From contig CAYSHL010000001.1 in NCBI GenBank assembly GCA_964430865.1, positions 3,946 to 67,945 on the forward strand: DNA of 64,000 bases. The letters are read 5' to 3'. The notes beneath the pieces were generated by a model that saw only the letters and a list, made by a program, of their open reading frames with translations, was not told the origin of the DNA and ran no database searches. The DNA is from an uncultured Sphingomonas sp. Its GTDB lineage: Bacteria; Pseudomonadota; Alphaproteobacteria; Sphingomonadales; Sphingomonadaceae. A program made the position numbers and the translations under genes. Below are positions 19,393 to 50,072 of the stretch, piece after piece. Numbering within the stretch: the first letter of the stretch is position 1; each line of letters begins with the position of its first letter.

Positions 19393-19497
19393 CCCTCCCC
19401 CTTGATGGGGGAGGGTTGGGTGGGGGTGGCGGTGGAGCTGCTTGAGCTCTTCCGGAGACTCCACCCCACCCCTGCCCCTCCCCATCGAGGGGAGGGG
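19393..19497. repeat. Family A palindromic repeat (intergenic)
   Basis: ccctcccccttgatgggggaggg ... cccctccccatcgaggggagggg double hairpin. Confidence 0.9.
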
Positions 19498-42342: not shown

Positions 42343-42422
42343 CGTCTTTGCGAGCGGAGCGCGGCAAGCCAGCTTCTTTGTTGTGGCTGGATTGCCGCGT
42401 CGCTGCGCTCCTCGCAATGACG
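42343..42422. repeat. Family B palindromic repeat (CGTC...GACG ends)
   Basis: cgtctttgcgag...ctcgcaatgacg; sister copy at 43592. Confidence 0.85.
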
Positions 42423-43586
42423 CTAAAGGGAGTGGGTTTGCCCGCCCTCGACATGGAAGCGCGAGGCCGCGGCGATGCCGTCGAACAGCGCCGCTTCGGT
42501 CGCCGTCATCCACACCTGGCCGCGGCCTTCGAGGCGGTCGAACAGAGCGGCGCGGCGGCGCGGGTCGAGGTGCGCGGCGACCTCGTCGAGCAGCAGGATC
42601 GGCGGCGCCCCGCGGCGCGCGGCGACCAGCTCGGCATGCGACAGCACCAGGCCCAGCAGCAGCGCCTTTTGCTCGCCGGTCGAGCTTTGCGCCGCCGGCA
42701 TGGCCTTGGCGCGGTGGGTGACGATGAGGTCGTGGCGATGCGGGCCGACGGTCGTCCGGCCGGCGGCGGCGTCGCGGCCGCGGCTGGACCTGAGCTCGGC
42801 CGCGAGATCGCCGTCTCCCCAGCCTTCGAGGGCCAGCTTGGCAACCGCGAAGTCGGCTTCGGGCGTAGCGCTCAGGCGTTCGTCGAGCGCGGCGACGGTT
42901 CGGGTCCGAGCACCGGCGACGGCGGCGCCATGTTCGGCCATCCCCGCTTCCAGCGCCGCCAGCCAGGCGGGGTCGGCGCCGTCGGGGTCGGCGAGCAATT
43001 TGTTGCGGGCGCGCATCGCGGCTTCGTAGCGTGCCGAATGGTGGGCGTGGGCGGGCTCGAGCGCCAGCACCAGCCGGTCGAGGAAGCGCCGCCGGGCGCC
43101 GGCGCTGTCGGCGAACAGCCGGTCCATCGCCGGGGTCAGCCACAGCACCGACAGCCATTCGGACAGCGAGTTGACCGCGGCGGGCGCGCCGTTGATGCGG
43201 ACCTGGCGGCGCTCGGGCGCGGTGGCGAGGGTGCCGGTGCCGATGGAAACACTCCCCCTCCCGTCATCGGGAGGGGGCTGGGGGGAGGGCCTGTCGTCGT
43301 CAGCGCCGGATCCGGACAGGCCCTCCCCTCGGTCCCCTCCCGATGACGGGAGGGGAGGAAGGAGAGCCGCCGCGACCGCGAATCCGCCGGGACCGTTGTT
43401 GCGGGCCATCTCGGCGAGCGGGGCTCCGCGCAGCCCGCGCCCCGGCGTCAGCAGCGACACCGCCTCGAGCATGTTGGTCTTGCCGGCGCCATTGTCGCCC
43501 GACAGCAGCACGAAGCCCGGCCCCGGCGCGATCGTCGCTGCGGCGTAGGAGCGGAAATCGGTGAGTGTCAGTCGAGTGAGATGCAC
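42423..43586 (-). CDS. recF: DNA replication/repair protein RecF with an in-frame repeat insertion
   Basis: [37 protein letters not shown]; follows dnaN. Confidence 0.95.
43253..43356. repeat. Family A palindromic repeat inside recF
   Basis: cccctcccgtcatcgggagggg ... cccctcccgatgacgggagggg; translated in frame. Confidence 0.9.
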
Positions 43587-43591
43587 GCCGT

Positions 43592-43671
43592 CGTCCTTGC
43601 GAGGAGCGCAGCGACGAAGCAATCCAGCGCAAACAAAGAAACTGGATTGCTTCGCTACGCTCGCAACGACG
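43592..43671. repeat. Family B palindromic repeat between dnaN and recF
   Basis: cgtccttgcgag..gaagcaatccag...ctggattgcttc..ctcgcaacgacg. Confidence 0.85.
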
Positions 43672-45519: not shown

Positions 45520-46680
45520 TTAGATGATCGCGCGAATCAGCGCCGTCACCAGCTGGGTCTTCGGGTCGACCTGGTAGATGTTGCCGTTGTTGTAGCGGTA
45601 CCAGGCATCCGGAGTGTCGTAATATTCGTCGCGGTAGGCGAGCGGCACATTGTACGTGCTGTAGCCCATCGGCAGCGCCTGGCCGACGCTGAGCCCGTTG
45701 CCGGTCAGCAAGGACGCGACCGCGGTGATCATCCGGGTCGTCGGATCGACCTGGTAGATCGCGCCGGGAGCGTAGCGGTACATGTAATCGTCGCTGTCGG
45801 CGTACAGGTCGCGATACTGGTACGGCACATTATAGGCCGAATAGGTCGGCGGCAGCATCTGGCCCATGCCGTATCCACCGGCCATCAGCGGGACCATGTT
45901 TTCGATCATCCCGCTGTCGCGGTCGATCTCGTACACATAGCCGTTGGCGAACCGGTAATAATCGTCCGAATTGTCGCGGTAGAAAGCCTGGTAGGGCTGC
46001 GGCACGTAATAATTGCCGTAGGACGACGGGAACATCTGCCCCGGCATCAGCCCCGCTCCGAGCAGCGGCAGGAGCGACGCGACCAAATTGCTTCGGCGAT
46101 CGACCTGGTAGAGGTAACCGCCGTCGCCCAGCCGGTAATAGTAATCGTCGTTGTCGCGATAATAGTCGCGCAGCGCCAGCGGCACCATCCGGTCGCGGTA
46201 GGCGAGCGGGATCGAGCGGCCCAGCACCTGCTTCTTGTATTGGCCCGGAGGCATGCAGCCGGCCTTGGCGTGGCCCGGCGGGCACCAGCTGTTCTCTTCC
46301 CAGTAAGCGGTGCGCCCGCGGCGGTCGAAGCGATCGTCGTCCACGTCGCGGTAGCGGACAACCTGGCGGTCCTTGCGGTCGAACTTGGCGAAGTTGCGAT
46401 CGTCGTCGCGGCCCTTCGACTTGTACGCGTGCTTGAATTCGCGGTCCTGGCCCTTCGACTTGTACGCGGGCTTGAATTCGCGGTCGTGGCGCTTGTCTTT
46501 GAACTGGGCCTTGACTTCACGATCCGAACCCTTGGCCTTGAAGCCGACATGGCCGCCGCCGCGCTCAGCTTTGGCGGAGTGGCCCTTGTGATCGCCGCCG
46601 CCGCCCTTGTCGGGCTTGGCGGAAACGGGGGCTGCAATCGCCAGCGCGGCAACGCCGGCGGCGAGGAATAGCTTGGTCAT
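45520..46680 (-). CDS. Secreted Tyr-rich repeat protein (RcnB-like repeats)
   Basis: Signal peptide, K/D/R-rich arm, CPPG..K..CMPPGQ, four VPxxYRxxYxD..YRx..G..YxxD repeats. Confidence 0.82.
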   Translation of the reverse strand: MTKLFLAAGVAALAIAAPVSAKPDKGGGGDHKGHSAKAERGGGHVGFKAKGSDREVKAQFKDKRHDREFKPAYKSKGQDREFKHAYKSKGRDDDRNFAKFDRKDRQVVRYRDVDDDRFDRRGRTAYWEENSWCPPGHAKAGCMPPGQYKKQVLGRSIPLAYRDRMVPLALRDYYRDNDDYYYRLGDGGYLYQVDRRSNLVASLLPLLGAGLMPGQMFPSSYGNYYVPQPYQAFYRDNSDDYYRFANGYVYEIDRDSGMIENMVPLMAGGYGMGQMLPPTYSAYNVPYQYRDLYADSDDYMYRYAPGAIYQVDPTTRMITAVASLLTGNGLSVGQALPMGYSTYNVPLAYRDEYYDTPDAWYRYNNGNIYQVDPKTQLVTALIRAII

Positions 46681-46792: not shown

Positions 46793-48070
46793 TCAGGGAG
46801 TTAGACTGGGTTCGGGATCGTCGACCCAGTCGGAGCGCAGGCGCTTGATCGCGAAGGCCATCAGCAGCGCCGCAAGCAGATAGAAGCCGAGCACGCTCAC
46901 CGCCGCGTAGCGCAGCGCCTCGGTGCCGAACCGTTCCTTGAACAGCTCGGACAACGCCCCGATCAGGGTCGGGCCAACGCCGAGCCCGACGAGATTGTTG
47001 ATCAGCAGGAAGCTGGCCGAGGCGGTCGCCCGCAGCGGCCGCGGAACGAGGTGTTGAACCGCGGTCACGACCGGACCCAGCCACAATATGTTGAGGGCGT
47101 TGGGGATCAGCAGCAGCAGCCACGCCAGCCGCAGGTCCTGGACCATGAGGCCGGCGGCAAATAGCGGCGCGGTGATCAGCCAGGCGATCGCCGGCAGGCG
47201 GGCGTACCAGGCGCGGTCGGTTCGCCCGAGCCGGTCGGCGAGCCAGCCGCCGGCGAGCACGCCCGCGGTGCCGCCGATCAGGAAGATCGCGGCGAGGAAC
47301 TGGCCGCGGGCGACGATGTCGAGGCCGAAGCTGCGTTCGAGCACCGTCGGGGTCCACAAAGCGAGGCCATAGCCGGCCAGCGAGCTGCACGATGCGGCGG
47401 AGGCCATCAGCCAGAAGCTCGGCTTGCGGGCGACCATCGGGAAGGTCGAGAGCAGGCGCGGCGCCGGGGCCGCCGGCCCGGCCTCGCGCGGCTTGTCGCG
47501 GACGACGAGCAGCATGATCGGCGCGAGCGCGATGCCGGCGACGCCCATCACCAGGAAGGCCGCGCGCCAGTCGATCCACGACGCGAGATAAGCGCCGATC
47601 AGGGTTCCGGCGGCAAGGCCGAGCGGAACCCCGAGCGAGAAAATCGCCAGCGCCCTGGCGCGCTTGTGCGGCGGGAAATAGTCGGCGATCAGCGCATAGG
47701 AAGGCGCGACGCCACCGGCCTCCCCGACCCCGACGCCGAGCCGGAACAGGAACAATTGGAGGAAGCTGGTCGCGGTCCCGCATAGCGCCGTGAAGCCGCT
47801 CCACACGACCAGCGCCCCGGCGATCACCCGGCTCCGGCTGGTGCGGTCGGCGATCATCGCCAGCGGCACCGCGAGCACCGAATAGAGGATCGCGAAGGCA
47901 AGGCCGGCGATCGCCCCGAACTCGGCGTCGGTGAGCTTGAGATCGGCGATGATCGGGCCGGCGAGGATGCCGAGGATCTGCCGGTCGAGGAAATTGAAAA
48001 TGTAGGCGAGCAGCAGCAGCGCGAGCACGAGGTTGGGGCTGCGCAGCCCGCGGGCGGTGGTGCTCGTCAA
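46793..48070 (-). CDS. MFS transporter (spinster-like)
   Basis: FNFLDRQIL, GVGVGEAG, LIADYFP, about 12 TM segments. Confidence 0.92.
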   Translation of the reverse strand: MTSTTARGLRSPNLVLALLLLAYIFNFLDRQILGILAGPIIADLKLTDAEFGAIAGLAFAILYSVLAVPLAMIADRTSRSRVIAGALVVWSGFTALCGTATSFLQLFLFRLGVGVGEAGGVAPSYALIADYFPPHKRARALAIFSLGVPLGLAAGTLIGAYLASWIDWRAAFLVMGVAGIALAPIMLLVVRDKPREAGPAAPAPRLLSTFPMVARKPSFWLMASAASCSSLAGYGLALWTPTVLERSFGLDIVARGQFLAAIFLIGGTAGVLAGGWLADRLGRTDRAWYARLPAIAWLITAPLFAAGLMVQDLRLAWLLLLIPNALNILWLGPVVTAVQHLVPRPLRATASASFLLINNLVGLGVGPTLIGALSELFKERFGTEALRYAAVSVLGFYLLAALLMAFAIKRLRSDWVDDPEPSLTP

Positions 48071-49308
48071 GTCAATGTCTCCAGCAATCCGGCGAGCCGG
48101 CCGATGTCGTCCTCGTCGTGATAGAGGCCCAGCCCGATGCGGAGCACGTCGCCGCGAACGTCGGTGATGCAGTTTTTCGCGTCAAGCTCATTGTGCCAGC
48201 GCGTGGCTTCGGGGCTGCGGAAGGCGAGGAAGCGCGCGTGCGGGCGGCCATCGAGGGGATTGAGCAGCTCGGCGTCCGCCAAAGCCGTGCCGACGATGGA
48301 GTCGAGCAGAATGCGCTGCAGGCCGTCGACATGGGCGGAAATAAGCGCCGTAGTCAGCGCGTTGCCGGCCAGCATCCGGCGGACGGCGTTGAACCGGTAC
48401 AGCGCCGACGGGTCGAAGGTCGCGCCCATGAAGCGCCTCGCGTCGGCCGCGTAGCCGACGCTGCCCGGCGGCAGTGTCAAATCCTCGAACTCGGCGAACC
48501 AGCCGGTGATCGGCGGCCGCGGGCCGAAGCCCGGCGGCGCGTGAAGGAACGCGCAGCCCTCGCCCGCCATCGCATATTTGTAGCCCCCGCCGAGGTAGAA
48601 GATTCTGCTCCCCCTCCCGCCAGCGGGAGGGGGCTGGGGGGAGGGCGTGTCGGGCGAGGACAAGCCCGCCCCTTCGGCGCTACGCGCCTCTTCCCCTCCC
48701 GCGAGCGGGCGGGGGATCGCCATGAAGGCGTGGTAGCCGTCGATGACGATCCACGGGCCTTCGGGATTGGCGAGCGTGGCGAGCTCGTCGACTCCATCAA
48801 AACGCCGGCCGGTGCCGAACAGGATCTGGCTGACGAGGATGAGGTCGTGGCTGCCGCTCCGCCCCGCGGCCAGGAAGCGGCCGGTGAAATCGTCGAACGG
48901 CTCGGCGGCGACGGTCTCGAGCTCGAGCCAGCCGTCCTCGGCCCAGCGCGCGAGCTGGCGCCGGGCGCTGTGGAACTCACCGTCGCTGGCCAGCACCCGC
49001 AGCCGGCGCGGGTCCGAGCGCGGCGCCGCGGCGGCGAGGCGGACGAGGAAATCGTGGGTGTTCGAAGCAAACACCAGCGCATCGGGAGCATCGGTGCCGA
49101 GCTCGGCGGCGACATGGCGCTGTGCCTCGGGCCACACCTCGCCCATCACCTTGTCCCACTTGCGGTCGGCGAGGCGCGCGGCGTCCTGCCAGCATTCGAC
49201 CTGGCCCTCGAAGCTCGCGTCGGGCCACAGATGATGGCTGTGCGCGGCCATGTGCAGCCGCTCGGGATCGGCGCCGAGGCTGCGCGAAAACAGCCCTTTG
49301 AAATTCAA
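48067..49308 (-). CDS. Kynureninase-like PLP enzyme (class V) with an in-frame repeat insertion
   Basis: AAHSHH, IDGYH, GGYKY, P..TGWFA; TTG start overlaps the kynA stop. Confidence 0.85.
   Translation of the reverse strand: MNFKGLFSRSLGADPERLHMAAHSHHLWPDASFEGQVECWQDAARLADRKWDKVMGEVWPEAQRHVAAELGTDAPDALVFASNTHDFLVRLAAAAPRSDPRRLRVLASDGEFHSARRQLARWAEDGWLELETVAAEPFDDFTGRFLAAGRSGSHDLILVSQILFGTGRRFDGVDELATLANPEGPWIVIDGYHAFMAIPRPLAGGEEARSAEGAGLSSPDTPSPQPPPAGGRGSRIFYLGGGYKYAMAGEGCAFLHAPPGFGPRPPITGWFAEFEDLTLPPGSVGYAADARRFMGATFDPSALYRFNAVRRMLAGNALTTALISAHVDGLQRILLDSIVGTALADAELLNPLDGRPHARFLAFRSPEATRWHNELDAKNCITDVRGDVLRIGLGLYHDEDDIGRLAGLLETLT
48609..48716. repeat. Family A palindromic repeat inside the kynureninase-like gene
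   Basis: cccctcccgccagcgggagggggctggggggaggg ... cccctcccgcgagcgggcgggg. Confidence 0.88.
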
Positions 49309-50072
49309 AGGCCGGTCCTCATCGACCACAGTTCGGGGAACGCGCGCTTGTCGAGCGTCGAGCGGAGGTAAGCCGCGCCGGCCGAGCCGCCGGTGCCGCG
49401 CTTGTTGCCGATGATCCGCTCGACGGTCAGCACATGCTTGTGCCGCCACAGCGCCAGCGCGTCGTCGATGTCGACCAGCTTCTCGGCCAGCTGGTAGAGG
49501 TCGAACCAGCGGTCGGAATCGCGGTAGACGGTGAGCCACGCCTCGCCGATCGCCGCCTCCGAGCGGTCGCCGAGGTCGAAGCCCGCCCGCTCCAGCGCCG
49601 CGTGCGAGGCATCGCGCAGGCTCGGCTCGTCGAACGCCGCTTGCAGCCGCGCGCGGTCCGCGCCGCCGGCTTCATATTGCTCGAGGTATCCGGGCTCCTT
49701 GATCCCGAGGCGGTATTCGAGCTCGCGGAACTGCACCGACTGGAAGCCCGACGCGGTCCCAAGCACGCTTCGGAAGGCGGTGTAATCGACCGGGGTCAGA
49801 GTCGACAGCACGTCCCACGACAAGGTCATCACCGACTGGATCCGGCCGATCCGGGCCATCGCCTTGTACGAGGCGGCGAAATGGTCCTGGTCGAGCAGCG
49901 AGATCGCCAAAGCGAGCTCGTGGAGCATCTGCTTGAGCCACAGTTCCTTGGTCTGGTGGATGACGATGAACAGCATCTCGTCGTGGAGGCCCGACAGCGG
50001 CTGCTGGGCGCCGAGCACCCGATCGAGCGCGAGATAGTCGGCATAAGTGATGCCGGCGGGAGTGGCGGTCAT
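49305..50072 (-). CDS. kynA: Tryptophan 2,3-dioxygenase
   Basis: HDEMLFIVIHQ..ELW, SGFQS, WRHKH, GTGGS.G..YL, FPELW. Confidence 0.94.
   Translation of the reverse strand: MTATPAGITYADYLALDRVLGAQQPLSGLHDEMLFIVIHQTKELWLKQMLHELALAISLLDQDHFAASYKAMARIGRIQSVMTLSWDVLSTLTPVDYTAFRSVLGTASGFQSVQFRELEYRLGIKEPGYLEQYEAGGADRARLQAAFDEPSLRDASHAALERAGFDLGDRSEAAIGEAWLTVYRDSDRWFDLYQLAEKLVDIDDALALWRHKHVLTVERIIGNKRGTGGSAGAAYLRSTLDKRAFPELWSMRTGL

Follow-up and report, generated by a model that had tools for sequence, protein, structure and literature searches.

An in-frame hairpin-repeat doublet in recF of an uncultured Sphingomonas, at a recurrently filled turn of the protein

The recF gene of an uncultured Sphingomonas sp. 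carries a palindromic repeat inserted in frame, and the insertion is real. Several unrelated repeat families have landed repeatedly in the RecF turn that holds it, and the ends of the repeat match those of a DUF559 nuclease cassette; an earlier note on this DNA had missed both points. With a probability of about 0.68, we read the insert as a gene-less doublet of a dispersed GC-rich repeat, probably originating from and spread by a DUF559 nuclease cassette (a family which we take to have the Vsr-like PD-(D/E)xK fold), landed in the turn of a RecF β-hairpin and tolerated there as a disordered loop. A single in-frame insert is ordinary of its kind; the novelty lies in the class of repeat, in its candidate nuclease and in how often a single RecF turn has been filled.

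The recF insert and its repeat

Within the window, by which we mean the whole 64,000-nt stretch of DNA analysed, recF occupies positions 42423 to 43586 on the minus strand, with dnaN upstream. It starts with GTG at 43586 and its frame runs uninterrupted for 387 aa. The translation scores 223 bits on the RecF profile TIGR00611 (equivalog cut-off 172) and contains the Walker A, signature, Walker B and D-loop motifs. Both the open frame through the repeat and the intact RecF motifs, as the earlier note had described them, are therefore confirmed. The insert region spans 43245 to 43361 on the minus strand (117 nt, residues 76-114), against 12 nt encoding a G-E-T-D type turn in the nearest insert-free relatives, a net gain of 105 nt or 35 aa. 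A lineage-specific insert of 30-35 aa had been anticipated, and the gain of 35 aa over the short ‘LGxxxIGTG’ turn seen in 70 of 129 congener RecFs agrees with this. No target-site duplication was found when the window allele was compared with the nearest insert-free relatives.

Conservation of the segment among orthologs, the test set by the earlier note, is ruled out by the short turn of 88 of the 129 congeners, and a true start downstream of the insert by the Walker A motif that precedes it. An assembly artefact is unlikely: a contig from a probable source run matches positions 42423-43334 with zero mismatches, spanning one junction and most of the insert, a match that is not independent evidence; a near-identical insert in a second genome (G012) also counters it. 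Six RNA runs contained small shares only, 0.06-0.11 of words.

In reading direction, the first arm of the repeat (43315 to 43355, minus strand, 41 nt) comprises a pyrimidine tract and a purine tract, which form a 22-nt hairpin, and a second purine tract. It is followed by a variable spacer of 19 nt (43296 to 43314), at the position where the full cassette has its DUF559 gene, and by the inverted second arm (43255 to 43295, plus strand, 41 nt). The arms are 93% complementary. The repeat folds with z = -7.6 as DNA and -7.0 as RNA, and 0 of 200 shuffles fold equally well. Its lowest-energy fold is a single long hairpin of arm against arm; the ‘double hairpin’ of the earlier note is another possible fold, with a separate 22-nt stem formed within each arm. 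Both arms share a rare loop variant that occurs nowhere else in the genome, and in G012 on one arm only. More generally, 12 of 36 doublets have the same loop variant on both arms, where 5.4 would be expected (p = 0.002), and this sharing above chance shows that copying between arms occurs locally.

Within the window, the recF repeat has its closest relative at 48609-48715 (minus strand), where another member of its repeat group lies in frame in a kynureninase-like aminotransferase ORF (48067-49539). This copy was absent from the copies listed earlier; those at 19393, 22212 and 61745, assigned there to the same family, are indeed related repeats but of a sister subtype, with another loop and tail. 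The 41-nt arms give the element the terminal inverted repeats of a classical MITE; the target-site duplication of a classical MITE is absent, and about 12 native nucleotides are replaced instead. Copies across the genome have no fixed flanking motif, only a G-poor run of about 6 nt. In Rfam no matching family was found: 16 matches were returned, all below the gathering score and mostly to generic hairpin models.

The family is abundant. A blastn search with five seeds found 114 loci in the 2.4-Mb genome (GC 67%), and a de novo scan gave 231 hairpins forming 158 elements; contigs C1-C3 yielded 27 hairpins/elements, against 0 in an equal-length Markov control. Exact hairpins of this arm type number 75, the highest count among 151 congeners, the next being 37. 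Over named genomes the exact arm pattern matched at least 120 stretches, and nearly all of the 80 listed belong to Sphingomonadales.

Other repeats are present nearby. An unrelated, intergenic CGTC/SRM-type doublet lies upstream of recF (43592 to 43671) and a matching one downstream (42343 to 42422), the two bracketing the gene in inverted orientation; the same family flanks an Ssn-like GIY-YIG gene on contig C9 (G000 C9:15700-15909, L208). The window also holds two long direct-repeat pairs (30966-31398/35985-36417 and 35768-35984/37223-37439; 300 nt at 86% and 217 nt at 98%), the latter overlapping the gyrB 3' end and suggesting a local duplication or integration scar, and an ORF (45520-46680) encoding a Lys/Asp/Arg-rich 13-residue triple repeat and several Tyr-rich repeated modules.

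Recurrent filling of the RecF turn and other host genes

We modelled the protein with AlphaFold (118 sequences; mean pLDDT 92.7), and the ten best Foldseek matches of the model are all RecF structures. The insert is modelled as coil with pLDDT 51-58, against values mostly >90 elsewhere, and occupies residues 77-112, at a β-hairpin turn flanked by strands 69-76 and 113-120. It is thus predicted to be a disordered surface loop that leaves the fold intact, and the ‘new peptide loops’ proposed earlier hold as a structural prediction. The available text of a review (PMC12192639) gives no residue-level map of this turn relative to DNA or RecR.

An N-terminal RecF query matched 249 of 271 congener genomes, and the loop was read in 129 alleles and in the partial allele of G012, a set chosen by score and hence enriched for inserts. 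The short turn is found in 88 of the 129; ten have 2-8 extra residues and 31 have 17-49. With G012 as the 32nd case, the turn is filled in at least 32 of the 249 congeners (13%). A recF tree of 125 rows was built without the loop (30 filled and 89 empty alleles, with 6 short ones uncounted) and requires 23 changes, against a shuffled mean of 26.8, with 3% of shuffles at or below the observed value; these counts do not distinguish gains from losses. At many well-supported places in the tree a filled allele has an empty one as its sister, and close sister species without the insert are found. Grouping the 10 carriers of the present repeat group into a single clade is rejected (p-AU 6e-46; the group was named after the tree had been seen). 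By sequence the 30 inserts form six types, with one left unclassified; one type is known from the unpublished genome G124 alone, and inserts of one type are read in differing frames. Nine belong to a family that flanks GIY-YIG genes in G106 and G026. A single ancestral insertion is thereby rejected by the tree changes, the AU test and the several types and frames; with repeat types and frames scattered over the tree, the inserts arose repeatedly. Across the order, a search of 301 genomes at a strict cut-off found the turn filled also in four genomes of two other genera.

A site in valyl-tRNA synthetase behaves alike: among the 29 congener loci read there, the highest-scoring of 133 matches, 12 have long inserts, and these are of several types. 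At this site, filled alleles often have G-E-L before the insert and empty ones G-A-F/W, which echoes the flank change in recF (G000 and congeners, L213-L226).

The sequence flanking the RecF turn differs between filled and empty alleles. The strongest synonymous difference among 194 conserved columns is the Gly codon right after the site (filled 29/29 vs empty 51/80, p = 4e-5, the empty alleles being a non-random sample), and four of the top five differing columns are no more than 4 codons away from it. In the rest of the gene, filled and empty alleles use Gly codons alike (0.60 and 0.58). The three-codon string after the site is shared by 24 of 30 filled alleles and 31 of 89 empty ones, and excess synonymous identity near the site fades beyond 8 codons. 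At the protein level, a basic residue (R/K) precedes the turn in 75 of 89 empty and 4 of 30 filled alleles, and an acidic residue follows it in 76 of 89 and 4 of 30, respectively. These shifts fit a target preference, short co-conversion or selection beside the hairpin.

One alternative is that the RecF turn is actively targeted, its local sequence or structure attracting several repeat-nuclease systems, or that filled alleles spread between species by short-tract conversion, with the cargo later swapped. We consider it doubtful, while acknowledging the codon bias confined to the site, the inserts found in genomes with few exact genomic copies (five in G185, none in G007) and the nine inserts of GIY-YIG-associated type, all of which speak for it. 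Against it stand the missing fixed motif beside genomic copies and the loss of excess identity past 8 codons. The codon bias itself could stem from selection on mRNA folding or translation beside the hairpin, and it was measured against empty alleles that were not randomly sampled.

Insertion into coding sequence extends well beyond recF. By a codon model, 25 of the 158 elements, including 18 of the 67 multi-hairpin ones, lie inside open frames with coding flanks; one of them, at position 4760 of contig C2, is probably a native hairpin and was set aside. The annotated host genes number 24, recF and 23 further genes with the same kind of insert. Eight are DNA-repair genes and four encode tRNA-ligase subunits. 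The hosts are RecF, Mfd, ImuB-like, DnaE2, UvrD, MutL, UvrA, a ligase-associated DEXH helicase, Uup, the ligase subunits IleRS, ValRS, GlyS and GlyQ, RNase R, RimO, Der, CarA, GcvPB, PtrB, MetH, CFA synthase, biotin carboxylase, the aminotransferase and one unknown. Absence of the insert in orthologs was established for valS as well as recF. Two neighbouring genes, imuB-like and dnaE2, each hold an in-frame copy, of differing subtypes (L154, G000 C16:37210-40443), and both glycyl-tRNA synthetase subunits carry one (L160, G000 C30:18579-21600). Across 43 non-coding doublets, 67% of frames are open, which makes the repeat prone to being read. Few in-ORF matches came from six other repeat patterns, for example 1/45 and 0/28.

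DNA-repair genes make up about 5% of coding DNA by our own rough estimate, and their share among the hosts (8 of 24) raises the idea that the inserts are useful, the mRNA hairpin or the loop tuning RecF and other repair proteins, for example by lowering repair or recombination activity. The same bias was noted, with similar speculation, in the consulted text of Di Nocera 2013 (PMC3733652), and the loss in filled alleles of the two charged residues flanking the turn could be taken in the same sense. We nevertheless find usefulness unlikely. The inserted peptides have no common sequence across types or frames, eroded remnants of 2-8 residues persist in 10 of 129 alleles, close sister species do without the insert, and the one tested case of a Rickettsia palindromic element (RPE) was neutral or slightly harmful, as summarised in PMC2229807. 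On the reading of a tolerated doublet, the translated peptide is most likely near-neutral.

DUF559 genes and the proposed route of insertion

The genome holds 10 DUF559 genes, and inverted hairpin repeats are seen by eye at the ends of all of them. A strict detector finds flanks on both sides of 8 of the 10, against 4 of 970 called short genes, and the flanks of the other two are degenerate by eye. The recF arms align with the left and right ends of the DUF559 gene on contig C22 (the C22 gene), so that the recF element equals the two ends of that cassette, separated by a short spacer instead of the gene. Of the 30 best matches to the C22 protein, this arm type accompanies those that lie at the yqeY-dnaG locus or are like those that do; other DUF559 clades in congeners carry other repeat types, 10 of the 20 loci in that comparison coming from the unpublished G124. 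The only solved relative, 3HRL, is described as an ‘endonuclease-like protein’.

Among 151 congeners, a DUF559 match is present in 28 of the 33 genomes with at least 5 exact hairpins and in 55 of the 118 with fewer (p = 1e-4, the congeners being related and kin counted as independent). The association is imperfect in both directions. The query used found no DUF559 match in 5 of the 33 hairpin-rich genomes, G185 (98% complete) has a recF insert of this type and no DUF559 match, and the 55 DUF559-bearing genomes just mentioned are poor in hairpins of this one subtype. The C22-type gene stands at one locus in many congeners, and may be resident or domesticated rather than moving.

A RAYT partner is unsupported: the repeat has no GTAG end, and neither of the two Y1 transposase genes (Y1_Tnp) of the genome is flanked by such hairpins. 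These two genes are near-identical and have inverted ends with short tandem units unrelated to the hairpin family (L401, L402; G000 C3:12270 and 91435). Six single-domain GIY-YIG genes (L197, L201, L203, L205, L208, L209; G000) are flanked by several different abundant repeat families and are likely Ssn homologs with distinct specificities. DUF559 matches also occur in long open frames of up to 761 aa (L188 in the unpublished G124, L251 in G238, L257 in G109, L269 in G105), which may be in-frame fusions of whole cassettes with host genes. The DUF559 subtype found upstream of a dihydrolipoamide-dehydrogenase-like gene differs by species (L172 in G282 vs L171 in G124 and L033 in G000), which suggests cassette replacement at one locus.

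We infer that the repeat is both translated and mobilised. In the mechanism we propose, the DUF559 nuclease would recognise the hairpin and tail at its own ends, with single-stranded DNA the probable substrate, as for Ssn and RAYT enzymes, and would promote insertion through host repair, about 12 native bases being replaced without duplication. Landings that are out of frame or break the fold would be purged, and only in-frame ones in tolerant loops would persist. The RecF turn would be one such loop, perhaps aided by a preferred local sequence; tolerance alone may be insufficient to account for 13% occupancy of one site. Spread of the repeats without an enzyme of their own, through slippage during replication or through template switching at hairpin or triplex structures with DUF559 genes merely among them, is improbable in our estimate: the loop variants shared between arms (12 of 36) and the partial text of Holder 2015 (PMC4666352), which reports no mobility genes beside TM motifs and a link to instability, would suit it, yet it leaves unexplained both the inverted bracketing of DUF559 genes (8/10 vs 4/970) and the pairing of nuclease clade with repeat subtype.

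Several uses follow. The natural series of at least 32 RecF variants, with different loops of 17-49 residues at one turn, marks out a tolerant tagging site and allows a direct test of the neutrality of repeat inserts in repair genes, a question raised in 2013. The orphan BoxC/TM repeat gains a candidate enzyme that exists in E. coli K-12 (ycjD), making its origin and spread testable. If the nuclease shares with Ssn the recognition of structured single-stranded DNA, these enzymes would form a second family of that kind, rich in natural specificities.

Comparison with known repeat systems

The recF element resembles the RPEs, which occur in frame in 19 genes (Ogata 2000, as cited in the consulted parts of PMC2229807 and PMC3733652). 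It is a multi-copy palindromic repeat of about 105 nt, within the RPE-like range of about 100-150 nt, with intergenic copies and copies in frame in conserved housekeeping genes (24 here), and the predicted structure places it in a surface loop with the fold intact. It differs in its host, a free-living sphingomonad of 67% GC, in its GC-rich three-arm unit arranged as an inverted doublet, in its Pro/Gly-rich peptide predicted to be disordered, in its candidate partner nuclease and in the repeated filling of the same site across species. The RPE comparison drawn in the earlier note thus stands as an analogy, of a multi-copy palindrome found between genes and in frame, and not as membership. In-frame palindromes are also described in the available parts of two Geobacter papers (PMC2700814, PMC2996986), whose supplements could bear on the link between DUF559 and repeats; in the accessible literature, judged by titles and abstract openings and with subscription journals mostly outside its scope, we found no report tying DUF559 to such repeats.

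Intragenic GTAG/CGTC REP dimers offer another comparison. As described in the consulted text of Di Nocera 2013 (PMC3733652), they add 20-30 aa in frame, including in Sphingopyxis and Erythrobacter, show a bias to DNA-repair genes and tRNA synthetases, and in one instance different REPs occupy about the same recB site in two Xanthomonas species. The name recF has 0 occurrences in the four supplements consulted for that paper. The present element has neither a GTAG nor a CGTC tag, and its site is filled in at least 32 genomes, by two nuclease-linked superfamilies.

In architecture, the likeness is to the BoxC/PIT/TM-ECO repeats: both recF arms run from a pyrimidine tract through a loop to a purine tract, a short loop and a second purine tract, and stand as a tandem inverted pair. 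Caulobacter CIR and rhizobial RIME repeats may also be related. Relative to the E. coli TM (BoxC) consensus, the second recF arm has 2 substitutions and the first has 5, so that neither is an exact TM-ECO. A sister subtype accounts for 17 exact TM-consensus matches in the genome, one of them at a DUF559 gene (the C62 gene) whose flanks match that consensus. In E. coli K-12 the gene ycjD is annotated as DUF559, and its product shares 55% identity with the C62 protein. A remnant of the TM/BoxC motif forms the end of ycjD (L392:2706-2920), and Holder's motif 9, a full TM, follows some 170 nt further on. In the consulted text of Holder 2015 (PMC4666352), the TM motif is always intergenic in E. coli, adjoins no mobility gene and is linked to instability, and neither ycjD nor any nuclease is mentioned.

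Nuclease genes bracketed by repeats are known for RAYT and Ssn from the parts consulted of PMC3733652 and Chenal 2025 (PMC11893778), and the DUF559 cassettes share with Ssn/SRM and RAYT/REP(IN) a small nuclease gene bracketed by cognate scattered hairpin repeats and a paired diversification of enzyme and repeat. The partner here is a candidate of DUF559/Vsr-like fold, whereas Ssn is GIY-YIG and RAYT is HUH; ‘Vsr’ has 0 occurrences in the available text of the Ssn paper (PMC11893778). The CGTC-type hairpin flanking a single-domain GIY-YIG gene, which characterises Ssn/SRM, is not a feature of this repeat, and the GIY-YIG genes of the genome are flanked by other families. We tentatively put forward, below even odds, a broader picture in which DUF559/YcjD proteins would be the mobilisers of BoxC/triplex repeats and make up a third nuclease-repeat system, whose doublets insert without duplication, and in which the RecF β-turn would serve as a sequence-favoured pad for two unrelated systems within a systematic invasion of repair proteins.
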